From NCBI GenBank assembly GCA_020631975.1, contig JACKGO010000008.1, positions 72,446 through 136,445 of the forward strand: 64,000 bases of DNA, written 5' to 3'. This document shows, piece after piece, positions 7,206 to 19,259 of the stretch. The notes under the pieces are model-generated. The model was not told the DNA's origin, did no database searches, and worked only from the letters and a program-made list of their open reading frames with translations. The translations under genes were made by a program, and so were the position numbers. This stretch comes from Candidatus Nomurabacteria bacterium (GTDB taxonomy: Bacteria > Patescibacteriota > Saccharimonadia > Saccharimonadales > CAIOMD01). Position 1 is the first letter of the stretch. Every line of letters starts with the position of its first letter.

Positions 7206-7295
7206 GGAGAGGTGCAAGAGTGGTTGAATTGGCTTGTCTCGAAAACAAGTGAGCCAGCAATGGTTCCGAGGGTTCGAATCCCTCCCTCTCCGCCA
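7206..7295 (+). tRNA. tRNA-Ser (anticodon CGA), CCA encoded
   Basis: Hand-folded: acceptor GGAGAGG/CCTCTCC, anticodon arm CTTGT-CTCGAAA-ACAAG, long variable arm, T-arm GAGGG-TTCGAAT-CCCTC. Confidence 0.9.
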
Positions 7296-7353
7296 ATTTG
7301 TGAGCCCCGCTTTTATGCGGGGTTTTCAAATTGCTGTGAAAAGTGCATTCGAA
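7281..7353. repeat. tRNA-Ser 3' end plus downstream flank; an inverted homolog lies at 14986-15059
   Basis: The 26-nt block aaattgctgtgaaaagtgcattcgaa (7328-7353) is identical to the reverse complement of 14986-15011. The hairpin and the tRNA 3' end are also similar. Confidence 0.7.
7303..7327 (+). terminator. intrinsic terminator after tRNA-Ser(CGA)
   Basis: ccccgc (7305-7310) pairs with gcgggg (7317-7322), followed by tttt. Confidence 0.6.
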
Positions 7354-8549: not shown

Positions 8550-8576
8550 AAAATATACCCCAGACAAGCTGGGGCT
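8550..8576 (-). terminator. orphaned terminator, inferred to be the native terminator of tRNA-Ser(UGA) before element insertion
   Basis: ccccag (8558-8563) pairs with ctgggg (8569-8574), T-rich on the minus strand. Lies immediately outside the left att core at 8584. Confidence 0.5.
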
Positions 8577-8583
8577 CATTTTA

Positions 8584-8729
8584 TGGCGCAGTTTTACAAC
8601 CGAGCTAGAACCCATTTTGGCGCAAATGCCTGACGCACTGGCCGAAAACCCCAAAAAACTCCTCGCCTGATTTTCTGAAAGATTTCCCCCGCCGAATTTT
8701 GGAAATTGAGAGGAGTTTTTGGGGTTTTA
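8584..8729. repeat. arm A (146 bp), perfect inverted repeat of 9928-10073
   Basis: Base-by-base reverse-complement match read by eye. Contains an internal ~19-bp stem (aaaaccccaaaaaactcctc / gaggagtttttggggtttt). Confidence 0.9.
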
Positions 8730-8754
8730 GACGCTCTACTATGACAACCGGTCA

Positions 8755-8783
8755 TTGACATAAGAGCAATAATGTGCTAGTAT
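8755..8783 (+). promoter_or_regulatory. sigma70-like promoter for the Fic gene
   Basis: TTGACA (8755-8760), 17-nt spacer, TAGTAT (8778-8783), with TGc extended -10. About 50 nt upstream of the ATG. Confidence 0.5.
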
Positions 8784-8835
8784 CTTAAGCAGTCTAACTA
8801 TAAAATAAAAATACAAGAAAATCGAAAGCTAAACC

Positions 8836-9918
8836 ATGTCGAACGAGATAGTTTCCCATAAAGACAACCGCGCAGAAGATATTACAGAGTTTTTCAACTC
8901 CCAAGAGCAACTCAAAGACTCTACACAGCGTCGTGATTACTTTGAGCACCTAGATGAAAACGAGTTCCTTGATCTTGTCCAACAAACTGCGGGACTTGTA
9001 CGAACTGGTAAGGTAGAAAACCAGCATTTTGATGGCGAAACGGTCGGGTTAATGACGCATGAAGTGCCCGACCAGCGGGAAAAAGAGCAACTTTTGCGCG
9101 ATACATGGACAGTAGCAAAAGAGTTTTTGAGTGATGCCGAAATTCCCGATGAAGATGCACTGGATTATGCTGCACTTACGGTTGCTGGTGGCTTACTGTA
9201 TGCACACCCATTTATGGATGGCAACGGTCGCACTAGTCGAACACTCTCGTACATGATTGCTCGTGGTAACGGTGATAAGCAGGAGTTGCACGACATACTT
9301 GCCGAAACTGGCGGTGGCCGTAACTGGCAAGTCGCACCAGTGCCTCTAGTGACGAGCGGTCAGTCGGTGTTTGAGGGCAAGCAACCGAAATCGATTGAAT
9401 GGGAAGATACATTTGTTGGCGAGGCAGAAGATGCGCTCGGTGGTGCTATTGCCAACAGTAGATATAAAGACGCGATTATTAGAAAGTTTATCGAAAAATA
9501 CGGTGAGTTAGCCGGAGAGCAGATTAAAGGAAGTTCGTTACAGCATGAAGATGGAACTTCTACGCTAAATGGTGAAGAGTTTATTGCCAAACTTGTTAAC
9601 GATCCAGAGGCGGGCATGACAAATGCGGATGAATTGATGAAGTTACATCGTGAAGCCCGCGCCGATTATGTTCACCGGTTTCTTAAAGCAATGCAGCTGA
9701 AAGAAAAGACACAGCTTCGTAGAATCCGCCAAGGAGATTTTGAGATAACCGACCAAGATGATGAATTCCAGAGAGGGCGTAAGCAAACAATCATTAAAGA
9801 GTTTGGAAAGCGTTCCGTTAATGGATTGTTGACACCTGCCGAGCAGCAACTCGTACAGCACCGTTCGTACTCACGAATACGTCATGGGAAAGAACGGGAC
9901 GAAGATATCGCCGCTTAA
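8836..9918 (+). CDS. Fic (filamentation induced by cAMP) domain protein
   Basis: Canonical Fic motif HPFMDGNGRTSR (HxFx[DE]GNGRxxR), 360 aa. Confidence 0.9.
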   Translation: MSNEIVSHKDNRAEDITEFFNSQEQLKDSTQRRDYFEHLDENEFLDLVQQTAGLVRTGKVENQHFDGETVGLMTHEVPDQREKEQLLRDTWTVAKEFLSDAEIPDEDALDYAALTVAGGLLYAHPFMDGNGRTSRTLSYMIARGNGDKQELHDILAETGGGRNWQVAPVPLVTSGQSVFEGKQPKSIEWEDTFVGEAEDALGGAIANSRYKDAIIRKFIEKYGELAGEQIKGSSLQHEDGTSTLNGEEFIAKLVNDPEAGMTNADELMKLHREARADYVHRFLKAMQLKEKTQLRRIRQGDFEITDQDDEFQRGRKQTIIKEFGKRSVNGLLTPAEQQLVQHRSYSRIRHGKERDEDIAA

Positions 9919-9927
9919 CGGCGATGA

Positions 9928-10073
9928 TAAAACCCCAAAAACTCCTCTCAATTTCCAAAATTCGGCGGGGGAAATCTTTCAGAAAATCAGGCGAGGAGTT
10001 TTTTGGGGTTTTCGGCCAGTGCGTCAGGCATTTGCGCCAAAATGGGTTCTAGCTCGGTTGTAAAACTGCGCCA
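9928..10073. repeat. arm A' (146 bp), inverted partner of 8584-8729; also acts as a large hairpin after the Fic stop codon
   Basis: Perfect reverse complement of arm A. Shares the cgcca core (10069-10073) with arm B. Confidence 0.9.
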
Positions 10074-10203
10074 CAAGCAAACTTTTTTGGAAATTGCCGT
10101 CCGCATGGGCGGCTTTTTCTTTGGCTGCGCGGAGCGCCAGCCAGATGTTTTCAGGGGGGAAGTGGGAGCTGGGGCGCGGCTGGAGCCGCGCTTTTTTGGT
10201 TGT
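10069..10203. repeat. arm B (135 bp), perfect inverted repeat of 11757-11891
   Basis: Base-by-base reverse-complement match. Contains a terminator-like gcgcggct-gg-agccgcgc followed by tttttt. Confidence 0.9.
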
Positions 10204-10355
10204 CCGCCATAGGCGGATTTCTGGTAAAATAAGAGTGGACACAAGTTAATTTTCGGAAATTCCGTTTTTTGTAGGCTTTAATAGCCGTCTCGTACAATCT
10301 GGGATTTCCTAGCTTGTGTCCAGCGAGGCGGCTATTTAAGTTCTAGGGGGTAGCG

Positions 10356-12023
10356 ATGGCTGAAAAATATTTCATTTATGCTCGCAAGAGTACCGATGTC
10401 GAGGACAAACAAGTTTTGTCTATCGAGGCACAGATAGCGGAGTTGAAAAAGTACGCCAAAGATAACCAACTAACAGTAGTAGACACTGTTATCGAAAAGA
10501 AGTCCGCCAAAGTGCCGGGACGCCTCAAGTTTGGCGCAATGCTTACTCGAATTGAAGCTGGTGAAGCCAGTGGAGTTATCTCGTGGCACCCTGACCGATT
10601 GGCAAGAAATAGTATAGACGGCGGACAGATTGTCTATCTGCTCGACCAAACGCACCTGCAATCGCTCAAGTTTCCGACATTTTGGTTTGAAAATACCAGT
10701 CAGGGTAAGTTTATGCTGTCTATTGCGTTTGGTCAGAGCAAATACTACATCGACAACCTCGCGGAGAATACGAAGCGTGGTTTGCGCCAGAAAGTACGGC
10801 GGGGCGAGTTTCCGGGGCTTGCGCCTGTTGGGTATATCAACGACGTGCGCATACATACGATTATTACTGACAAACGCCGCGCCCCAATCATCGCGCAAGC
10901 CTTTGAGTTGTATGCTCTCGGCGGTAGCCGCCTGCAAGATATTGCCAAATTTCTGGCAGATAAGGGTGTGAAAACGAGGAGCGGCAAGCACCTCACAAAA
11001 GATATGGTGAAGAAAATACTGACCAATCCTATCTACTACGGACATTTTAAGTATGCTGGCGAGGTACATGAGGGCAAACATACGCCGATTATTAGCAAGA
11101 AGCTGTTTGACTATGTACAGGCGACGCTAGAACGACGCGGACACAAGCGCAAGGGCGCGAACGCGCCCCAAGCCTTGTGCGGCTTGTTGACTTGCGGCGG
11201 GTGCAATATGGCGATTACTGCCGAGAAAAAGATAAAATACCAGAAAAACGGCAATGTACATGAGTATATTTACTACCGTTGTTCAAGGAAACATAAAACG
11301 ATTGCTTGCAAAGAGCCGACCATAACCGAACCCGACCTTGTCGCACAGCTTGCCGACATCTTGCAGGACTACGCCCTGCCGAAGTCGTGGGCGGTAGAGC
11401 TAGAAACAATGCTCGCAGAAGACGAGAAGAAAGCAGAACAAAGTTCTGCGGTGTTTATCACTGACACACAAAACAAGATACAGAGCTTGCAGAGCAAGCT
11501 CCAGCGACTACTCGACAGCTACCTAGACCAAGATATTGACCAACATGCGTACCGTGCCAAGCAAGCCGAGTTGATGAGCCAAAAGAAGTCGCTGGAAGAA
11601 CAAACCAGCAAGCTGACGCTTGCCGCCAATAGTTGGGTTGAACCTATGCGACAGTGGCTCAAAACGGCGATTTCTCTCTGTGAAATCGCAAAATGTGCCG
11701 AGCCAGCGGCAATGAAACAGGCTTTTAGCGAAATTGACGGATTGAACCTGTTTTTAACAACCAAAAAAGCGCGGCTCCAGCCGCGCCCCAGCTCCCACTT
11801 CCCCCCTGAAAACATCTGGCTGGCGCTCCGCGCAGCCAAAGAAAAAGCCGCCCATGCGGACGGCAATTTCCAAAAAAGTTTGCTTGTGGCGGAGAGAGTG
11901 GGATTCGAACCCACGGTACCGTTGCCGGCACGCATGTTTTCAAGACATGTTCCTTCAACCACTCGGACATCTCTCCATACAGGTAGTAAGTATACCAAAT
12001 GTGATGTTGTTGCTAAAGCATAA
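10356..12023 (+). CDS. large serine recombinase (resolvase domain, recombinase domain, zinc ribbon, coiled coil)
   Basis: N-terminal YARKSTD...SIEAQ and HPDRLARN. Zinc ribbon CGLLTCGGC...YYRCSRK. The last ~90 aa are encoded by arm B' and then the antisense of tRNA-Ser. Confidence 0.9.
   Translation: MAEKYFIYARKSTDVEDKQVLSIEAQIAELKKYAKDNQLTVVDTVIEKKSAKVPGRLKFGAMLTRIEAGEASGVISWHPDRLARNSIDGGQIVYLLDQTHLQSLKFPTFWFENTSQGKFMLSIAFGQSKYYIDNLAENTKRGLRQKVRRGEFPGLAPVGYINDVRIHTIITDKRRAPIIAQAFELYALGGSRLQDIAKFLADKGVKTRSGKHLTKDMVKKILTNPIYYGHFKYAGEVHEGKHTPIISKKLFDYVQATLERRGHKRKGANAPQALCGLLTCGGCNMAITAEKKIKYQKNGNVHEYIYYRCSRKHKTIACKEPTITEPDLVAQLADILQDYALPKSWAVELETMLAEDEKKAEQSSAVFITDTQNKIQSLQSKLQRLLDSYLDQDIDQHAYRAKQAELMSQKKSLEEQTSKLTLAANSWVEPMRQWLKTAISLCEIAKCAEPAAMKQAFSEIDGLNLFLTTKKARLQPRPSSHFPPENIWLALRAAKEKAAHADGNFQKSLLVAERVGFEPTVPLPARMFSRHVPSTTRTSLHTGSKYTKCDVVAKA
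11757..11891. repeat. arm B' (135 bp), inverted partner of 10069-10203
   Basis: Perfect reverse complement of arm B. Its last 5 nt are the CGCCA 3' end of tRNA-Ser(UGA). Lies inside the recombinase ORF. Confidence 0.9.
11887..11976 (-). tRNA. tRNA-Ser (anticodon TGA), copy 1, CCA encoded
   Basis: Hand-folded: acceptor GGAGAGA/TCTCTCC perfect, anticodon loop CTTGAAA, T-arm GTGGG-TTCGAAT-CCCAC. Confidence 0.85.
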
Positions 12024-12111
12024 TATGTGTATTTACTGACGATAGTTGTGGGCATTAGAGTAAGGCATAGTAAGCTCAAGGTTAGTAGCTCAATAGAAGG
12101 TTGCGTTTTAG

Positions 12112-12963
12112 TTAGAGATTTAGATTAAGCATGTCTTCACATAAAACAATTACCGCTTTTTTGTTTACGGGTTCTTTTGTATAGCCAAGCTGAGTACCAA
12201 CTTCTTGTGACATCCTATCGAATATATCAACCATACTAAGTGTTGCTTGCCATATTTCTTTTTTTTCACTAGTTGCGCTAATACTATTTATCTCATTTGC
12301 AAAATCAATATCCATAAGCTTTTCTAAATTTCTGCCGTGAACGCCATAGTTAATGCTCCAGTTGTTACTAAGACCCACATACCATGAAAGCATTCTCTCG
12401 AATGATTCATATCGTATAGCGCTTAATAGCATATACCTAGCAAAGGCCGTTTCTCCACGACGCAAGCTTTTTGCTATATAGGGTAAATCCCAATAAAAGC
12501 CATCTACAGTTTCATAAAATTCCCTCTCAGTTGGTTTGGTAACTATGTATTTTTTTAAAGTAGGGTGTACTATTTTGGATTCTATATTATCTTTATCTAT
12601 AATTATCTTGTATCCGTTATTATAGTCTGTGCTATCAAAGTGCTGATTATCAATAATTTGAAAGTCAACCCTAGGAAAGTCTTTAAAAACAACCAGCCTG
12701 GTAAGACTACCCGGAGCAAAGCCAGCATTTCTTGGCATGAGTGGCCACTTTACTAATGTTTGTCCAAAATAGTCTAACCAGTCATCGCTGTTAAATAAAT
12801 GTAAATCTTTTACGATTAATTCTACGTCATAATCTGATAGCTTATCTGGTTTTGAGCTTTTACTGACTCGAGAGCTAGTCAATATCATTGCTCTTACATT
12901 ATCGTTTTGAGTGCCCCAGCGTTCTAACTTTGAAAGTACATCTTGTTCATTGGTTTCAAACAT
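12112..12963 (-). CDS. ant(6): aminoglycoside 6-nucleotidyltransferase, ANT(6)/AadK-type (streptomycin adenylyltransferase family)
   Basis: 283 aa, collinear from memory with B. subtilis AadK. Examples: SDYDVELIVKD...DDWLDYFG versus QDYDISYFVTD...DQWLEIFG, and PTEREF...YIAKSLRRGE versus PTAREF...YVVKGLARNE. Confidence 0.8.
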   Translation of the reverse strand: MFETNEQDVLSKLERWGTQNDNVRAMILTSSRVSKSSKPDKLSDYDVELIVKDLHLFNSDDWLDYFGQTLVKWPLMPRNAGFAPGSLTRLVVFKDFPRVDFQIIDNQHFDSTDYNNGYKIIIDKDNIESKIVHPTLKKYIVTKPTEREFYETVDGFYWDLPYIAKSLRRGETAFARYMLLSAIRYESFERMLSWYVGLSNNWSINYGVHGRNLEKLMDIDFANEINSISATSEKKEIWQATLSMVDIFDRMSQEVGTQLGYTKEPVNKKAVIVLCEDMLNLNL

Positions 12964-13148
12964 GATTCTAGTATAATTTATAACTTACAATTATAGATAT
13001 TTTTGTTTTTAGAATAAGAAAGAGAAAGAGGCATGAACGCACGATGCTAGACTGGCTTTTCTATTCCAACATCTAACTAAAGTTTTGTTCAAATCAGATA
13101 GCTTTGACAGAATTCTAAACACTCTGCTCGGGTTTTAACCTAATTATT

Positions 13149-13206
13149 ACAGCAATTTAAAAACCCCGCAAATACGGGGATCTTAAATTGGCGGAGGAGG
13201 AGGGAT
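13149..13206. repeat. 58-bp direct repeat (tRNA-Ser 3' end plus hairpin flank), partner at 15002-15059
   Basis: acagcaatttaaaaaccccgcaaat...attggcggaggaggagggat. About 5 mismatches between the copies by eye. Confidence 0.8.
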
Positions 13207-13278
13207 TCGAACCCTCGGTACCGTTGCCGGCACGACGGTTTTCAAGACCGTTTCCTTCAACCACTCGGACACCTCTCC
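13189..13278 (-). tRNA. tRNA-Ser (anticodon TGA), copy 2, chimeric acceptor stem
   Basis: 5' strand GGAGAGG but 3' strand CTCCTCC, identical to the 3' end of tRNA-Ser(GCT). This gives an A5:C68 mismatch and a G6:U67 wobble. Confidence 0.75.
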
Positions 13279-13332
13279 GTACAACAAGATAGTATAGCAA
13301 AAAACTACACAAACACTAAAAAGCGTAAAATC

Positions 13333-14262
13333 TCACCCCAAATGCGACTTTTCCGTAACTTTCGCTAGTTCCAGTGTAGCAGTCTCCGGATTATCTTTAT
13401 AATATTGCTTGAATTGAGCTGGGGTCATCATGTCAGGTAACCCCATATGCCATCTACGGTTAATGTAGTGTTTGGTAAATCTGTTGGCTCGTTCCTGTAG
13501 TTCTGCGATGTCTTTTTGTTGGTATTCGCCCCTTGGGAAGCATTCGCTTCTGAGAGATTTGTTGAAGTTTTCAATATGGCTTTGTTCGTTCTTCTTGTAC
13601 GGACGGCTATAACGATGCTCACTGACAGCCTCAACAGCCTCTCGGAAGGTTGTTTGGAACTCGGAGCCGTTATCCGACTGGTGCAATACTGTACGCCCGT
13701 AGAAGGCGTTGTGGATGGCAAAAGCCCCGGCTCCGGTGTTCATCTCTAGGTTAGTACCAATTACTACACTTGGTTCCTTCGTGAATATGTCTATGGCTGT
13801 ATATGCATAGACACCGCCACCCAGGTCTACTGTGTCGTGTTCGATTACTTCTCTTGGGGCAGAAGCTGCCACGAGAGCTTTATGTTTCTTGTAGCGCCGT
13901 ACGCCAACAGCCGCCTTGGTGAAACGTCTGTGAAGATAACGGTAGATAGTGGATAAAGCCAGGCTAATGCCATGGTTTTCTTTGAGTTCTTTACGTATCT
14001 TAGCGCCACACCAGCCAAACTCATTTCTAATGTCTACTATCTTTTGGATGGTGGTTTCTGGTATTTGAGCTTTGGGGCGACGGTGCTTGGCGGTGGTCTT
14101 GCGCTTCAGAAACAACCGGATGCCGATCTGTTTGATCTTTCTTAGCCAACGGTAGACAGTAGCCCTATCGCGGGATACTACCTGAGCTATTTGGTTGATG
14201 GTAGATTCAGCTTGGTACATATTCCATGCTGTTTCGTAGATTGTTAGTGTACGCTTAGTCAT
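13333..14262 (-). mobile_element. IS481-family-like DDE transposase gene (309 aa); IS ends not identified
   Basis: N-terminal HTH (ATVYRWLRK). rve-type core with D (HDTVDLG), D (HQSDNGSEF) and E (SHIENFNKSLRSE). Fills the ~1.05-kb gap next to the tRNA 5' end. Confidence 0.75.
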
Positions 14263-14333
14263 AGCGACACTCCTTTCTTGATGTTTAGTTTGATACCTAA
14301 ACGAAAGTATACGGAGTGTTGCTACCTTTTAGC

Positions 14334-14804
14334 TTACTTTTGTCGCATTTTTAGTGGGAATTTTCCGAAAGGGGCAGTAGCTGGATTGCTGCATTCATAG
14401 ACAGCTTGTATGGCCGGCGTTGAAGGGTTAGCGTATGCAACAAAAAAATCTAATGTACAGTACGTATTGGCAACCTGCTTATAAGCATAGGCATCTGGAT
14501 ACCAATCTTTTCCAGATAGCACATCTTTAAACCATTGCTTAACTTGTAGCTCTTGGTCTTCGCGCTGTGTCCAACCCTGAAACTGTAACTGTGAACTAAG
14601 CTTGTCTGCAACATCTACAGCAGTGTCTTTTTTTACTTGGGTATCAAATGGCATATACGCCTTGTTGGTAACGACACAAGAATAATTACTTGCTTCACTA
14701 CATACAGTAGTTGATTCTATGTTTTCAAAGCCTAGTAGGGCGAGTGGCTTTCCAAGGGCGTTATATTCGCGTGTAAATGTTTTTTGGGTATTATGTTTTA
14801 CCAT
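14334..14804 (-). CDS. hypothetical protein (156 aa)
   Basis: Uninterrupted ORF with no recognisable motif. Confidence 0.5.
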   Translation of the reverse strand: MVKHNTQKTFTREYNALGKPLALLGFENIESTTVCSEASNYSCVVTNKAYMPFDTQVKKDTAVDVADKLSSQLQFQGWTQREDQELQVKQWFKDVLSGKDWYPDAYAYKQVANTYCTLDFFVAYANPSTPAIQAVYECSNPATAPFGKFPLKMRQK

Positions 14805-14822: not shown

Positions 14823-14912
14823 TCAGATATTAAGTAACATAATGCTCCCTATAAGCAAAAAAATTACACCACTAATAGCGAGCCACGTATGTTTGTTTTT
14901 TGACCCTTTCAT
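14823..14912 (-). CDS. possible 29-aa single-TM peptide (MKGSKNKHTWLAISGVIFLLIGSIMLLNI)
   Basis: Short ORF just upstream of 14334..14804 on the same strand. Below the ORF-track size cutoff. Confidence 0.3.
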   Translation of the reverse strand: MKGSKNKHTWLAISGVIFLLIGSIMLLNI

Positions 14913-15001
14913 ATCAGTATTATATATGTTTTCTTACCACAATAATGTAAAACCCCACACATATTAAGATTCTTATGTAGTCGGTTTCGAATGCACTTTT
15001 C

Positions 15002-15059
15002 ACAGCAATTTAAAAACCCCGCAAATGCAGGGATTTTATATTGGCGGAGGAGGAGGGAT
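15002..15059. repeat. displaced tRNA-Ser 3' fragment (15042-15059) plus flank; direct partner of 13149-13206
   Basis: tggcggaggaggagggat matches the 3' 18 nt of the tRNA-Ser genes at 13189 and 15215, then diverges (gctttcag). Confidence 0.8.
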
Positions 15060-15214
15060 GCTTTCAGTGCGCAGCAATCTTACTCTAAACGAGTTTCTGC
15101 GTGAGATTGCTTGGCGCCCGAAGCCCTCGCTATCGCCAGCTAAAGCTGTCGAGCTCGGGTTCAAATCCCTGCTACAGTAAATCAAGACACCCCCATAAAG
15201 GGGGTGCTTTGATT
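15060..15214. other. 155-bp unassigned spacer between complete tRNA-Ser(GCT) and its displaced 3' fragment
   Basis: Contains stem gcaatct/agattgc, a T-arm-like gggttcaaatccc, and a bidirectional hairpin caccccc-ataaa-gggggtg. No credible ORF. Confidence 0.3.
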
Positions 15215-15307
15215 TGGCGGAGGAGGAGGGATTCGAACCCTCGCACCAGGTTGCCCCGATCTAACGATTTAGCAAACCGTCCCCTTCAGCCACTTGGGTA
15301 CTCCTCC
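15215..15307 (-). tRNA. tRNA-Ser (anticodon GCT), CCA encoded
   Basis: Hand-folded: acceptor GGAGGAG/CTCCTCC, anticodon arm ACGGT-TTGCTAA-ATCGT, long variable arm, T-arm GAGGG-TTCGAAT-CCCTC. Confidence 0.9.
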
Positions 15308-15370
15308 ACTACTAGTGGTAGCTGACAGCTTAAAATTATAGCAGTTAGCAGCTCCTTTTAAAAGAATTTT

Positions 15371-16039
15371 CTAAGGTGTTCTCGCAACGACAGCCACGCG
15401 AACCTCTTGGGCTCCTGCTTTGTATAATAATTTTACTGTAGCGTCTATTGTAGCCCCAGTTGTCACTACATCATCAACTATAAGAAGTTTTTTACCTGCA
15501 ACGTGCCCAGCTATCGGGCGGAACGCATTCGCCAATTGTTTTTTTCTGGTGGGCCTGTCTGCGCCCTTTTGCGTAACAGATGTTACGCGCACTAATGTTT
15601 CTATTACTTTACGCTTTTGCATTTTGGCAAGTGCTTTTGTAACGGCTTGCATATGGTTAAAACCACGCTCTCTGATGTGGCTACCTGTTGCGGGTACATA
15701 TGTAAGCACGTAATCTGAGTCTAGATAGGGTATATTGAGTTGCAAAAAATAGGCAATATCTTTTGCAGCCGAACGTTTATAGTCGAATTTGTACGCCTTG
15801 ATGAGCTTTTTAATAGCTCCTTGGTAATCTGTAGCAATGTATACGGCAATTGGTGCAGATGAACTTTTATGCTGTTGGCATGGGTTGTTATGTTTTGTAG
15901 CTTTGCCACATACATAACAAATACTTGGTAGGGTAGGTAACGTAGCTGCGCATGACTTACACAAAACTGCGCCCTCAGCATTACACACAACACATTGATG
16001 TGGTGCGACTAGTGATAGGGCGGTATCTAAAATGTTCAT
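15371..16039 (-). CDS. comFC: ComF family protein (phosphoribosyltransferase domain with N-terminal Cys cluster)
   Basis: CVVCNA...CKSC...CYVCG zinc-finger-like N-terminus. PRTase motif LLIVDDVVTTGATI. Confidence 0.85.
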   Translation of the reverse strand: MNILDTALSLVAPHQCVVCNAEGAVLCKSCAATLPTLPSICYVCGKATKHNNPCQQHKSSSAPIAVYIATDYQGAIKKLIKAYKFDYKRSAAKDIAYFLQLNIPYLDSDYVLTYVPATGSHIRERGFNHMQAVTKALAKMQKRKVIETLVRVTSVTQKGADRPTRKKQLANAFRPIAGHVAGKKLLIVDDVVTTGATIDATVKLLYKAGAQEVRVAVVARTP

Positions 16040-16155
16040 GTTGTAATAATTATGTTGTGAATATAGCTATTAAAGTTGCTATCTACTCTGTATGTCAGTT
16101 ATAATCTCATGTAAAGATAAAAAATCAAATCTTAAAAAGCTGCAAATAAATAATC

Positions 16156-16638
16156 GTGGAGGGTAACATGGCACGACGTACGGCAGACGATGATCTGTTA
16201 ATGGAAGAAGAGCTAACGGCTGCGTTTTTGGGTGATGAAGATCTAGTATCTCCAGCTGCCGCACCAGCGCAACCAGTCGCAGAAGAAGAAGAATGGGACG
16301 AAAACGAACCAATCTTAGGACAATTGGCGGTTGATGTATACGAAACAAAAGAAAAACTTGTTGTTAAGGCACGAACTGCTGGCGTTAACAAGAACGATCT
16401 AGATGTGAGTATTGCAGACAACACCTTAAGCATTCGCGGGACACTATCTGCGGGTGGCGAAGAAGACGTAGAAAACTACCACTTGCAAGAATGCTACTGG
16501 GGCGAATTTTCTCGTAGCTTAGTACTACCTGTGCCAGTAAAAGAAGATGAAATTGAAGCTGTTTTAAAAGACGGCGTTCTAACCATTAGCTTTACAAAGG
16601 TACAGCAAGACACGGTTAAGAAAATTCAAGTTTTATAA
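16156..16638 (+). CDS. Hsp20/alpha-crystallin small heat-shock protein with acidic N-terminus
   Basis: LAVDVYETKEKLVVKARTAGVNKNDLDVSI...LTISFTK alpha-crystallin domain. Confidence 0.9.
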   Translation: MEGNMARRTADDDLLMEEELTAAFLGDEDLVSPAAAPAQPVAEEEEWDENEPILGQLAVDVYETKEKLVVKARTAGVNKNDLDVSIADNTLSIRGTLSAGGEEDVENYHLQECYWGEFSRSLVLPVPVKEDEIEAVLKDGVLTISFTKVQQDTVKKIQVL

Positions 16639-16657
16639 GTAGTTGCTAAAGTAAAAA

Positions 16658-16687
16658 AGACTTCTGGGTAAAACTAGAAGTCTTTTT
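16658..16687 (+). terminator. hsp20 terminator
   Basis: agacttct / agaagtct stem followed by ttttt. Confidence 0.6.
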
Positions 16688-16691
16688 ATAT

Positions 16692-16722
16692 GTAAAAATC
16701 CCCCTTTTGTAAAAGGGGGATT
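16692..16722 (-). terminator. terminator of the pilin operon
   Basis: aatccccctttt / aaaagggggatt perfect stem, with a T-run on the minus strand. Confidence 0.6.
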
Positions 16723-16746
16723 ACTTAACGTTTGGTGTGCAGCTAT

Positions 16747-17166
16747 CTAGGATGCTGTGTTGGCAACGTTGCCAAGTACAAACTTCACAATAACCTGCGC
16801 AAGCGCCACGATGATAAGACCTACTATTGCGTACAATATGGTGTTCTTTGCAGAAGTAACGCTACCGGCATCACCACCGCTGGTAATGTAGCGGAAACCG
16901 CCATAGATAATCATGATGACAGAAACAACACCAACAACCCAAGAAAAGATATTAATGATGAGGTTTACCGTATCATTAACACCTTCTGATGCTTCGTCAT
17001 TGATATTTGTACAGTCGCCAGCAGTGTTAGGTGCTTGCAAGTTTGCGCCACCACACAGGCCACTTTGAATATCACTTTGAGCAATTGCTATAGCAGGAAC
17101 GGTCAATGGAGCGAGCATACCTACAGCTGTGAATGCCGCTATTATTAATGTTTTTAGTCTGTTCAT
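16747..17166 (-). CDS. VirB2/TrbC-like T4SS pilin paralog 1 (139 aa)
   Basis: Signal peptide, variable Cys-containing region, conserved core IINIFSWVVGVVSVIMIIYGGFRYITSGGDAGSVTSAKNTILYAIVGLII (TM-loop-TM). Confidence 0.75.
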   Translation of the reverse strand: MNRLKTLIIAAFTAVGMLAPLTVPAIAIAQSDIQSGLCGGANLQAPNTAGDCTNINDEASEGVNDTVNLIINIFSWVVGVVSVIMIIYGGFRYITSGGDAGSVTSAKNTILYAIVGLIIVALAQVIVKFVLGNVANTAS

Positions 17167-17250
17167 GTAAATTCCTTATTTAACGTTAGCTTATGATACT
17201 TTTTTACCATATATTAATGTTTTTGTAAATATATAATCGTTCGTTCACTA

Positions 17251-17457
17251 TTTAGGTTACATTACCAAGCACAAAAAGCACAAGTACTTGCGCGAGTGCG
17301 GCGATTACCAAACCAACCAGTGCATAGACAATGGTATTTTTGGCGCTTGTTACTTTACCAGCATCACCCCCGCTAGTGATATACCGAAAACCACCAAATA
17401 TGACCATAATGACCGATACCACACCAACGATCCATGAAAAGATGTTGATGATGTCTT
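17251..17457. repeat. ~207-bp direct repeat (3' halves of pilin genes 2 and 3), partner at 17645-17851
   Basis: Near-identical by eye, with about 4 substitutions. Offset 394 bp. Confidence 0.85.
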
Positions 17458-17623
17458 CTACCAGAGTGTTAACTTTTGCTGGTGCGCTGCCCGCACATTG
17501 GTCACCGGTACATGTAGCTTCGACACCTTTTTTTATCTGTGCATAGCTCGTAGTAGTTGTAAGTACAGGGCCTACGAAAGCAAATGTTGCGAGTGCTGCT
17601 AGGCCTATTAAAAACGCTTTCAT
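17252..17623 (-). CDS. VirB2/TrbC-like T4SS pilin paralog 2 (123 aa)
   Basis: Same architecture. C-terminal 68 aa identical to paralog 3. Confidence 0.75.
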   Translation of the reverse strand: MKAFLIGLAALATFAFVGPVLTTTTSYAQIKKGVEATCTGDQCAGSAPAKVNTLVEDIINIFSWIVGVVSVIMVIFGGFRYITSGGDAGKVTSAKNTIVYALVGLVIAALAQVLVLFVLGNVT

Positions 17624-17644
17624 TTTTTTACTCCTTTATTTATC

Positions 17645-17851
17645 TTTAGGTTACATTACCAAGCACAAAAAGCACAAGTACTTGCGCGAGTGCCGCGATT
17701 ACCAAACCAACTAGTGCATAGACAATGGTATTTTTGGCACTGGTTACTTTACCAGCATCACCCCCGCTAGTGATATACCGAAAACCACCAAATATGACCA
17801 TAATGACCGATACCACACCAACGATCCATGAAAAGATGTTGATGATGTCTT
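17645..17851. repeat. ~207-bp direct repeat, partner of 17251-17457
   Basis: See partner entry. Confidence 0.85.
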
Positions 17852-18044
17852 GCACGAGGTTGTTTGCTTTTGCCTTAACACCTATTTTATTGCCCTCGCT
17901 GTCGTACTGCTGGCAGTTACCATCCGGACACGTAGCATTGATGCCATCTGTTACTGGGCTAGCGTATATGGGTAAACTCAATGCTGGCAGGGCAGCGGCA
18001 CTTAGTCCAAACACTGCTACGATTACTAAAAAGAGTTTTTTCAT
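17646..18044 (-). CDS. VirB2/TrbC-like T4SS pilin paralog 3 (132 aa)
   Basis: Same architecture. Variable region carries CPDGNC. Confidence 0.75.
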   Translation of the reverse strand: MKKLFLVIVAVFGLSAAALPALSLPIYASPVTDGINATCPDGNCQQYDSEGNKIGVKAKANNLVQDIINIFSWIVGVVSVIMVIFGGFRYITSGGDAGKVTSAKNTIVYALVGLVIAALAQVLVLFVLGNVT

Positions 18045-18057
18045 TTTATATCCTTTA

Positions 18058-18459
18058 TTAGTTTAATAACTTTGCTATTGCAAATAATATCAACCGATTT
18101 GCTAATACAACAACCACTAACCCAACAAGTGAGTACAATATAGTCTGCCGCCCAGTTGCTGCCTTTTGCGGTTCACCAGCGCTGGTAATGTACTTAAAAC
18201 CACCAAATATAACCATAAAAACTGCAAGCGCACCTGCTACAAAAGATAATATATTAATTATTCTCTTAATAAGAATTAGTATTGCGTTATCGCCCGGGTC
18301 GGCGTCACTACCTTTATCGTAGCCTTTACATAGTGAACTGGTTGGGTTGTTTTTGCACACTTCGGTTAAATCTTCTGTTGCGCTCGCAGCCATCGCTAAA
18401 GGACTTATGGTCAAAAAAAGTAGTGCTGTGGCGAATAAAGATGTCAAAAACATTTTCAT
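18058..18459 (-). CDS. VirB2/TrbC-like T4SS pilin paralog 4 (133 aa)
   Basis: Signal peptide, CKNNPTSSLC, core INILSFVAGALAVFMVIFGGFKYITSAGEPQKAATGRQTILYSLVGLVV. Confidence 0.7.
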   Translation of the reverse strand: MKMFLTSLFATALLFLTISPLAMAASATEDLTEVCKNNPTSSLCKGYDKGSDADPGDNAILILIKRIINILSFVAGALAVFMVIFGGFKYITSAGEPQKAATGRQTILYSLVGLVVVVLANRLILFAIAKLLN

Positions 18460-18468
18460 ATGTATGTG

Positions 18469-18747
18469 CTACGTCACCCTATTAAATATAAACAGAACAA
18501 TGACTTGGGCAAAAAATATTACAACCAACCCCGCTACGGCATATATAATCGCACGGCGAGCTTGGGCAACCTTTTCTGAATTACCCTGCGAAATAATCAG
18601 TTGTATACCAGAATAGACAACCATAATGACGGCAACTGCTCCAAAAATAGCGAGAACGTAATTTAAAATCGTGCCAAAACTATTTGTGTTTGTTTTTGGT
18701 AAATAATCAGAACTAATTATTGCTGAAAATGTGTATAAAATATTCAT
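18469..18747 (-). CDS. VirB2/TrbC-like T4SS pilin paralog 5 (92 aa, short N-terminus)
   Basis: Core LNYVLAIFGAVAVIMVVYSGIQLIISQGNSEKVAQARRAIIYAVAGLVV. No obvious long variable region. Confidence 0.65.
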   Translation of the reverse strand: MNILYTFSAIISSDYLPKTNTNSFGTILNYVLAIFGAVAVIMVVYSGIQLIISQGNSEKVAQARRAIIYAVAGLVVIFFAQVIVLFIFNRVT

Positions 18748-18749
18748 AT

Positions 18750-19259
18750 TTAGGCGAGTCCTCCGGCAATAAAGCCAACTATTTGCGACGCGATAACTGC
18801 AATTACCATACCTACCAAGGCATTAAACAGCGTTGTTCTGGCAGCGGCAATTTTTTGCGGTTCACCATCGCTCGTAAGTAATTTAAAACCGCCCCAAATA
18901 ATCATCACTACAGCAATAACGCCTGCTACATATAGAAGGATATCAAATATCCCCATAAGTATTAGAATAATGACTGTTCCACCTAGGCCATCTGTTTTAA
19001 TTTCACATTGCCCATTTACTTTTTGCCCCGGCAAGTACTGATACCAGGTTGGAAGAGGCAGACCTCCGCTACCTGGCCGGCATTTATTACCTTCTGCCTG
19101 TATGTTTGCTTCTGTTCCATCTGCTTGACGGGGGTTTTCTGGATTATCTGATTGCGCAACAACATGCACCGTAGACGGTACTATACCTAGCACAGCAATA
19201 CCCATACTTGGTACGAGTAATAGTGCTAGGCTTGTGAGAACTTTGGCAACGAGCTGCAT
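18750..19259 (-). CDS. VirB2/TrbC-like T4SS pilin paralog 6 (169 aa from Met at 19259)
   Basis: Start chosen at MQLVAKV (signal-like), overlapping the upstream stop (TAATG). Core FDILLYVAGVIAVVMIIWGGFKLLTSDGEPQKIAAARTTLFNALVGMVI. Confidence 0.7.
   Translation of the reverse strand: MQLVAKVLTSLALLLVPSMGIAVLGIVPSTVHVVAQSDNPENPRQADGTEANIQAEGNKCRPGSGGLPLPTWYQYLPGQKVNGQCEIKTDGLGGTVIILILMGIFDILLYVAGVIAVVMIIWGGFKLLTSDGEPQKIAAARTTLFNALVGMVIAVIASQIVGFIAGGLA

Follow-up and report, generated by a model that had tools for sequence, protein, structure and literature searches.

A putative tRNA-targeting element of Patescibacteria that has its attP module in two mirrored copies and a large serine recombinase gene running through the attachment site

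In this study, we analysed a 64,000-nt stretch of contig JACKGO010000008.1 (assembly GCA_020631975.1, forward positions 72,446-136,445), hereafter the window, in whose coordinates all positions below are given. Beside a tRNA-Ser(UGA) gene it carries a Fic gene and a recombinase gene, which together with their repeats we interpret, with somewhat better than even confidence, as a small integrative element of a large undescribed family in Patescibacteria, with a divergent large serine recombinase (LSR) and two mirrored copies of the attachment site attP. The insertion target of the LSR would be the terminal NCCA of tRNA genes, at their very 3' end. The segment with the LSR gene, and less securely the segment with the Fic gene, occurs in both orientations at this locus. 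The element had been noticed in a previous reading of the window from its letters (the sequence-only reading); it is real, and it is no singular case, as it belongs to a very large Patescibacteria family. Its mobility is inferred from insertion at tRNA genes of 24 anticodons and from tandem arrays in that family.

A repeat search of the window returned two inverted pairs, I1 (8581-8729 / 9928-10076, 149 nt) and I2 (10066-10203 / 11757-11894, 138 nt), both at 99% identity and each with one mismatch positioned just outside a 5-bp core at which the two pairs meet. The mismatch-free parts, core included, measure 146 bp in I1 (8584-8729 / 9928-10073) and 135 bp in I2 (10069-10203 / 11757-11891), and both lengths were also seen in BLAST of an independent contig. 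The sequence-only reading had called the arms perfect at these lengths by eye, and the computed alignment agrees, with mismatches only beyond the cores; the three cores that it listed (TGGCG or CGCCA, at 8584, 10069 and 11887) can be read directly in the sequence. Perfect inverted repeats of 135-146 bp within 64 kb cannot be of chance origin. With the arms of I1 named A and those of I2 named B, the first site (S1) reads flank-TGGCG-A, the second (S2) reads B'-TGGCG-A when reversed, and the third (S3) reads B'-TGGCG-tRNA. Read in this way, S1, S2 and S3 correspond to a putative attL, an inverted attP and an attR at the 3' end of tRNA-Ser(UGA). In the window and in related loci, attL and attR each combine one half of attP with one half of attB, reciprocally, and attP and attB have a short core in common. 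The attL/attP/attR logic first proposed for this locus is exact here and recurs in dozens of relatives, at tRNAs with 24 anticodons. From core to core, the element spans 3303 bp (~3.3 kb), and of the open reading frames (ORFs) within it, the Fic and LSR genes are the only two genes.

Joining the outer flanks would rebuild an empty site reading ...ggggctcatttta-TGGCG-gagagagtggg, in which the tRNA end regains a terminator that is now stranded beyond the element. That this would be a sensible site had been anticipated, and it matches a natural unoccupied twin at 13164-13278, where a second tRNA-Ser(tga) has a TGGCG end (13189-13193), a 9-nt spacer and a hairpin terminator (13164-13179). The layout of this twin is the same as the architecture made by joining the flanks.

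The domain content of the enzyme was examined with Pfam. The N-terminal catalytic domain matched PF00239 (E = 2e-21), the nucleophile motif YARKST is nearly invariant among 60 homologues, and the C-terminal part matched PF07508 (Recombinase) and PF13408 (Zn_ribbon_recom). The similarity to the C-terminal domain of the A118 integrase was remote (E ~6e-9), the scores fell under the NCBIfam cut-offs for CcrB and XisF, and an AlphaFold model (mean pLDDT 64.8) placed long helices at residues 343-447, as an embedded coiled coil. The enzyme is a genuine LSR, though a divergent one.

The 3' end of the gene deserves particular attention. In the integrated state, the ORF continues from B' over the core and along the antisense strand of the tRNA as far as 12023, and the protein has 555 aa. 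Reading B'-core-A, as in S2, adds 14 residues and a stop (QFYNRARTHFGANA in the window), and the resulting native 526-aa protein (P0126) is present in the database on three contigs; up to the core, its sequence is the same as that of the 555-aa form. In about 50 of 55 family loci, B'-core-A likewise yields a 14-aa tail of the form x[FLI]Y[ND]xxRT[YH]Fxxxx, with the stop exactly 14 codons beyond the core in most of them. The tails encoded by tRNAs range from 5 to >80 aa and have only G-[FLIV]-E-P, from the antisense T-arm, in common. In the native tail, the codons of the four invariant residues (Tyr, Arg, Thr and Phe) show synonymous variation only (TAT/TAC, AGA/CGA, ACN, TTT/TTC). Because these residues vary only synonymously and the position of the stop is kept, the tail is translated and under selection. 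The native tail is probably a terminal helix in the AlphaFold model.

The native LSR gene spans attP, and the crossover site lies inside the recombinase ORF. Since the ORF runs across attP, integration would replace its last 14 residues with antisense-tRNA codons. For the same reason, the repeat is more than an att site: the duplicated ~276-bp module also comprises the 3' end of the LSR gene and terminators. The order in the module is terminators, the last ~43 LSR codons (B'), the 5-bp core, 14 codons and a stop (A), and a terminator hairpin. The hairpins in B' are terminators on the opposite strand, immediately 3' of the tRNA, and the long terminator hairpin stops exactly at the inner edge of arm A.

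The antisense T-arm is read in a fixed frame, and nearly all integrated LSRs therefore end in ...G-[FLIV]-E-P..., whatever the tRNA. In database proteins of the family, this produces a 'conserved' C-terminal motif that is misleading, together with lengths that vary (about 485-650 aa among the 120 best cluster representatives).

The arms also share a short motif with the target. The Arg-Thr codons of arm A include GAAC(C), which matches the GAAC(C) of the tRNA T-arm, and in 29 of 30 loci the distance to the core is 4 nt greater for the copy in arm A than for the one in the T-arm. For the LI integrase, attP and attB were reported to contain the same zinc-ribbon-domain motif, set 5 bp farther inward in attB (PMC3783163). 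By analogy, the 4-nt offset fits arm A as an attP-type half-site and the tRNA as an attB-type one. Inspection by eye found no symmetric left-arm partner of the GAAC motif.

To place the element in its family, a database search with the LSR gave 7915 homologues at E <= 1e-20, and one-per-species reference genomes contained at least 488 relatives, nearly all in Saccharibacteria or other Patescibacteria. The layout was scored by self-comparison of 80 fetched loci (comparison loci and contigs carry L numbers here), which include the finished chromosome CP064994.1 (L023) and contigs of up to 971,550 bp. In 66 of the 80, an inverted B pair bounds the LSR gene (median 135 bp, median identity 100%), with one copy 150-300 nt 5' of the gene and the other forming its 3' end. 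Of the loci with enough downstream sequence to be evaluated (59), 50 have the 3' end of a minus-strand tRNA overlapping the outer end of B', mostly by 5 nt, and the targeted tRNAs represent 24 anticodons and 15 amino acids. A second pair (A; median 178 bp, range 101-283 bp) abuts the B pair and encloses a cargo arc of 0.9-3.7 kb; it was found in about 27 of the 33 loci having >=4.5 kb of upstream sequence. Every locus displayed has the attL, inverted attP and attR composition.

Tandem arrays of two complete elements, joined B1'-core-A2, occur in L034, L108 and L134, which shows serial insertion. L108 had also been considered as a chain of three arcs; this was rejected when a second LSR gene was found, making it a tandem of two elements. 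The cargo is highly varied: 62 ORFs in 28 arcs matched 60 Pfam families, including NUDIX, methyltransferases, EamA transporters, alanine racemase and HAD hydrolases, and these 28 arcs held no recurrent cargo gene, replication gene or directionality-factor candidate. The orientation of cargo genes relative to the LSR shows no preference. Between close relatives with near-identical B arms, only the first 50-95 nt of arm A are highly similar and the cargo is unrelated.

The two copies of the module evolve in concert. The median identity of the repeat within a locus is 100%, and the median identity to the nearest non-identical neighbour is 85%. At 590 of the 603 positions where a B' arm differs from that neighbour, the inverted copy of the same element carries the same base. 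Moreover, the module boundaries are kept across LSRs down to 45% identity. As the boundaries are conserved and the variants are common to both copies, the duplication must be old and continually homogenised, and this homogenisation requires ongoing exchange between the arms.

We then looked up contigs through both flanking genes, in search of inversion isomers; the contigs obtained were 99.9% identical. Two sequencing projects that used different assemblers yielded at least 14 contigs with the 555-aa LSR unchanged, and those among them that span the region have the layout of the window. The worry that the repeats were an assembly chimera is countered by this recurrence. The LSR arc was flipped in L113, L114 and L115, from three samples, where the tRNA-Ser(tga) side is followed by B and then by the 5' side of the LSR gene. 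These contigs were assembled by MEGAHIT with k=141; a word of that length exceeds the 135-bp repeat, and the words that make the join must therefore reach across it. The arc is likewise flipped in L120, the native-tail contigs L091-L093 show the flipped arc from the other side, and 11 samples have it in the standard orientation of the window. Four contigs (L102, L103, L125 and L131) have the Fic arc flipped beside the left flank, L006 has it flipped with respect to the LSR, and about eleven contigs have it in the standard orientation. By sample, both arcs were flipped in ERZ27309141 and ERZ27309268, the LSR arc only in ERZ27309162, and the Fic arc only in L006; when contigs are combined by sample, all four isomers therefore appear. 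The inversion isomers that had been predicted for both segments were thus found in independent assemblies of the same strain, that of the Fic arc less securely.

Flipped relatives are found elsewhere as well. In L110 (metagenome) and L019 (reference genome), the tRNA lies directly upstream of B and the LSR has its native tail. The LSR reads into the tRNA in 50 of 59 reference-genome loci, and L019 is the only clearly flipped one there. Because assemblers rarely mis-thread this repeat in reference genomes, the 7 flipped assemblies out of 18 at the present locus are not noise.

Taken together, these data suggest the following course of events. The free form would be a circle of ~3.3 kb with two inverted modules of ~276 bp, which would split the element into a cargo arc (Fic here) and a recombinase arc. 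Acting on the module that follows its own gene, the LSR would recombine this attP with the attB at the end of the tRNA, and the integrated product would read flank-core-A ... A'-core'-B-LSR-B'-core-tRNA. Integration would thereby swap the native 14-residue tail for antisense-tRNA codons, hand the tRNA new terminators from B', and leave an intact inverted attP with a spare 3' gene end upstream of the LSR gene. Each arc should be invertible, because perfect inverted repeats bound it and its outer ends are cores of opposite polarity. Inversion of the LSR arc would re-attach the native tail; the enzyme could in this way alternate between two forms, one truncated and locked in the chromosome, the other native and competent.

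The arcs might be inverted by RecA working on the repeats of 135-146 bp, or by the LSR itself at the cores. Arms as long and as perfectly homogenised as these suggest recombination of the RecA type; the chemistry would nevertheless permit exchange at the cores, since the ends of the repeats coincide exactly with cores of opposite polarity. The bias of the LSR arc to the tRNA-tailed state could mean a stable sink in which the truncated enzyme acts as a lock, and it could equally reflect selection against an active integrase beside a live attP. Within the overall account, we put the chance that the tail swap has a regulatory effect a little short of even. The stronger version, in which the swap is a built-in switch of directionality or activity that replaces a directionality factor, and arc inversion lets the cell or the element toggle between the integration-competent native form and a form with altered or no selectivity for site pairs, is doubtful. 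In that version the recombinase would reprogramme itself by way of the rearrangement in which its gene lies.

Several observations weigh against this account. In model LSRs, recombination of attP with attL or attR does not occur (PMC3783163), and by comparison an inversion catalysed by the LSR would be unorthodox. The near-perfect long arms fit homologous recombination better than site-specific exchange. Any role of the 14-residue tail in activity is conjectural, and the AlphaFold model, being of low confidence, suggests no more than a terminal helix. The contigs for the Fic arc cross a repeat of 146 bp, longer than k=141, and some of their orientations may be choices of the assembler. In more than 95% of the elements in reference genomes the LSR reads into the tRNA, so that outside this population flipping is rare or selected against.

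The empty attB junction and the circular form, both of which the sequence-only reading had proposed to look for, were sought in assembled contigs and neither was found, so that excision and the circle with two repeats are what we infer from the integrated copies. The exact 24-nt attB junction matched only two unrelated tRNA-Ser loci in metagenome contigs, and the look-ups through both flanks showed either the element or a contig end at this locus. No native-tail contig examined was circular: the 3.4-3.8-kb ones (L091, L094, L134 and L135) were flipped copies, arrays or fragments, with no terminal overlaps. Viral contigs gave two partial matches only. Two individual loci also fit the account poorly. 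In L091 (1-290), the upstream arm B is only ~80% identical to the downstream B', and the protein is that of the window up to the core; this contig may be a recombinant of two related elements or a chimeric scaffold. In L017 (2250-8518), three repeat-flanked arcs lie in series, the extra one being 1.8 kb long with a 211-bp inverted repeat and a methyltransferase-like gene and without a recombinase, and the cores alternate, so that the two outermost sites have opposite polarity. A circle with two modules does not explain this third arc. L017 may be an old rearranged copy, as its middle repeat is only 86% identical.

The alternative that we take most seriously, which we nevertheless consider rather unlikely, keeps the same LSR element and gives its modules no switching role. 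The modules would be cassettes for insulation or termination, the arcs would be flipped passively by RecA through recombination between 135-280-bp repeats, as in plastid inverted repeats, and the change of tail would be neutral. The arms do far exceed the length of an LSR site, are kept identical by concerted evolution and are rich in terminator hairpins, the cargo has no preferred orientation relative to the LSR, and the failure of model LSRs to recombine attP with attL or attR agrees with a passive process. However, the 14-aa tail and the position of its stop are under protein-level constraint across the family, so an intact gene must matter at some stage. In reference genomes the LSR arc is strongly biased to the tRNA-tailed state and the cargo is not, which indicates that the states are not equivalent, and the module boundaries are conserved across phylum-level divergence.

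It is also conceivable, and in our view very unlikely, that the LSR has been domesticated into an invertase for phase variation and that excision has been lost. In this population inversion was seen and absence of the element never, and the recombinase lies within one invertible segment, like Hin. On the other hand, the occupation of tRNAs with 24 anticodons, the tandem arrays and the wholly different cargo require repeated integration, and Fic has its own promoter inside the arc, so flipping is not obviously an on/off event.

An assembly artefact, or a chimera mixing integrated and excised forms, is scarcely credible. Contig breaks at the repeats are common (29 of the 80 loci begin <700 nt upstream of the LSR gene) and some contigs, such as L091, look mosaic; yet at least 14 contigs, produced in two projects with two assemblers, have these very junctions, and so do 66 loci of unrelated genome projects, including the finished chromosome and near-megabase contigs. 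The junctions of unique sequence with repeat must exist in the reads. The artefact is effectively refuted. Equally hard to credit is a serial insertion, at a palindromic CG crossover, of two circles with palindromic att sites (A'-CG-A and B'-TGGCGCCA-B): the window alone can be parsed so, as TGGCGC contains CG and GC, but the cores of most relatives (such as TGGTG and TGGTA) lack a palindromic dinucleotide in the same alternating-core layout, and the comparison of cores across the family ruled this out. Single-stranded fold-back, in which the arms would pair to form a double-stranded attP in the manner of CTX phage or integron attC, was set aside on reasoning alone, since double-strand exchange by an LSR with a hairpin would break the chromosome.

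The features that underlie the preferred reading, an integrative LSR element with mirrored modules, are collected in Table 1.

Table 1. Features of the putative element and its target tRNA, in window coordinates
Feature	Position	Strand	Basis and remarks
Stranded terminator of tRNA-Ser(tga), hairpin and T-run	8557..8575	-	Terminator scan; putative left half of ancestral attB (b), now 3.3 kb from the tRNA
Core 1, TGGCG of S1, putative attL (b-core-A)	8584..8588	+	Read directly
Arm A, S1 copy	8589..8729	+	Inverted repeat I1
Native LSR tail in arm A of S1, 14 codons and stop, detached from the gene in the present orientation	8589-8633	+	Reading frame of the tail
Long hairpin with T-run in arm A of S1	about 8645-8728	+	Fold z = -3.4
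Promoter-like site of Fic, TTGACA-17-TAGTAT, within the cargo arc	8755..8783	+	Promoter scan
Cargo gene, Fic-family protein, 360 aa, motif HPFMDGNGR	8836..9918	+	Pfam Fic E = 5.8e-8; NCBI records name Fic family protein
Arm A', S2 copy; minus strand codes for the spare native tail QFYNRARTHFGANA and stop	9928..10068	-	I1 and minus-strand ORF 10024..10242
Spare tail codons in A'	10068 down to 10027, stop 10026-10024	-	Reading frame; protein P0126
Core 2, CGCCA of S2, putative complete attP (B'-core-A), inverted	10069..10073	-	Read directly
Arm B, S2 copy; inward-facing terminator-like hairpins 10096-10113 and 10171-10194, 5' of the LSR gene	10074..10203	+	I2 and terminator scan
LSR ORF as integrated, 555 aa; conserved up to 11891, residues 513-555 are antisense-tRNA read-through	10356..12023	+	Pfam Resolvase, Recombinase and Zn_ribbon_recom; tail comparison
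Arm B', S3 copy, last ~43 conserved LSR codons	11757..11886	+	Inverted repeat I2
Hairpins in B', candidate replacement terminators of the tRNA	11864-11847, 11789-11766	-	Terminator scan
Core 3, TGGCG of S3, putative attR; reverse complement of the tRNA 3' end CGCCA	11887..11891	+	Read directly
tRNA-Ser(tga), putative integration target, right half of attB	11887..11976	-	ARAGORN, Rfam
Second tRNA-Ser(tga), unoccupied attB-like site	13164..13278 (tRNA 13189-13278)	-	ARAGORN; 87.5% identity to the occupied tRNA

Other features of the window surround this locus. The attB-like site of the twin tRNA lies 1.3 kb from the element and is inverted relative to the internal attP (S2); canonical attP × attB recombination between S2 and the twin would invert 10074-13188, and that inversion is in no contig. 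A tRNA-Ser(cga) with its hairpin terminator at 7206-7330 is another empty site. The equivalent tRNA is occupied by sister elements in L011, in the standard orientation, and in L110, flipped and with the native tail.

Between the two copies of tRNA-Ser(tga), the segment 11977-13188 has a GC content of 0.32-0.37, versus about 0.45 nearby, and it may be an older island bracketed by the duplicated tRNA. It includes a gene of the streptomycin-adenylyltransferase family on the minus strand (12112-12963; PF04439, E = 1.6e-58), which would be an aminoglycoside-modifying gene in a Saccharibacteria genome. Further along, 13324-14367 is an IS481-like insertion with a transposase gene (13333-14262, minus strand; HTH_32 and rve_3 domains). 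It is present in the window, L114 and L121 and absent in L002, L005, L112, L113 and L115, where 13323 jumps to 14368, and because it is present in some contigs and absent in others, it is polymorphic in the same strain population. The contigs without it have ~123 nt and a repeat of 13213-13323, arranged unlike the window. At about 14900-18900 (L002:5804-8316) lies a run of at least six small paralogous genes matching PF18895 (T4SS_pilin), with an internal direct repeat of 229 bp (17251-17479 / 17645-17873, 95% identity).

Patescibacteria have tiny genomes and few recognised mobile elements. If confirmed, the present family would be a widespread and overlooked class of gene-shuttling elements in this group, bringing 1-4 kb of highly varied cargo to tRNA genes. 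The two natural protein isoforms and four natural sites would offer a testbed for the long-standing question of how an LSR element can control activity or direction without an accessory factor. The family as a whole offers many natural serine integrases specific for tRNA ends, whose attP/attB pairs can be read from the sequence. The repeats also explain the recurrent contig breaks beside tRNAs in Patescibacteria genome bins.

Full-text literature searches found no description of the family or the layout, which agrees with the earlier opinion that the layout was undescribed; a recent preprint merely notes recombinases beside tRNA genes in a Saccharimonadia genome. What we did not find described is the combination of an ORF through its own att site, a mirrored spare 3' end with attP that evolves in concert, and two invertible arcs with a common site. 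The single parts have clear counterparts in known systems. With other LSR elements (A118/LI, phiC31, Bxb1, SCCmec CcrAB and XisF), the present one shares the domain set (resolvase catalytic domain, recombinase domain, zinc ribbon and coiled coil), a short identical core in attP and attB with hybrid attL and attR, and a motif common to the arms of attP and attB that lies nearer the centre in attB, by 4 nt here and by 5 bp for the LI integrase (PMC3783163). It differs from them in its apparent targeting of the terminal NCCA of many tRNAs, in a recombinase ORF that crosses attP, in the second, inverted attP module, and in having no conserved partner gene as a directionality factor.

The sequence-only reading had likened the element to the yeast 2-micron circle. 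The likeness holds for the layout, as the Flp/FRT system also has two inverted repeats with sites, two unique arcs with the recombinase in one of them, and coexisting isomers; it fails for the class of recombinase and for replication. Flp is a tyrosine recombinase, whereas only serine recombinase domains were found here. The 2-micron circle replicates autonomously and uses inversion for copy-number amplification, whereas the present element is chromosomal, sits at a tRNA, has no replication gene that we could find, and carries an ORF through its site.

The attachment site within a coding sequence has been reported in other integrases. In Mx8, attP lies in the integrase gene intP, and integration makes a new 3' end and alters specificity (PMC6070905); in the 'suicidal' integrases of the SSV type, the att site is inside the integrase gene, which integration splits (PMC7253208). 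These systems resemble the present element in the att site within the coding sequence, in the 3' end that is rewritten or split, and in the tRNA target, but they are tyrosine recombinases and the element here is of the serine type. To our knowledge, none of them has an inverted spare 3' end that could be re-attached by inversion. Finally, Hin, Gin and Cin and the shufflons likewise have segments with inverted sites, a recombinase inside one of them (Hin), adjacent segments with a common site, and both orientations in nature. The former are small serine invertases (~190 aa, with a C-terminal helix-turn-helix) that act with an enhancer and Fis, the shufflons use the tyrosine recombinase Rci, and their sites measure 26-34 bp. 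Unlike them, the present element combines an LSR of 526 or 555 aa and arc-specific repeats of 135-280 bp with insertion at a tRNA.

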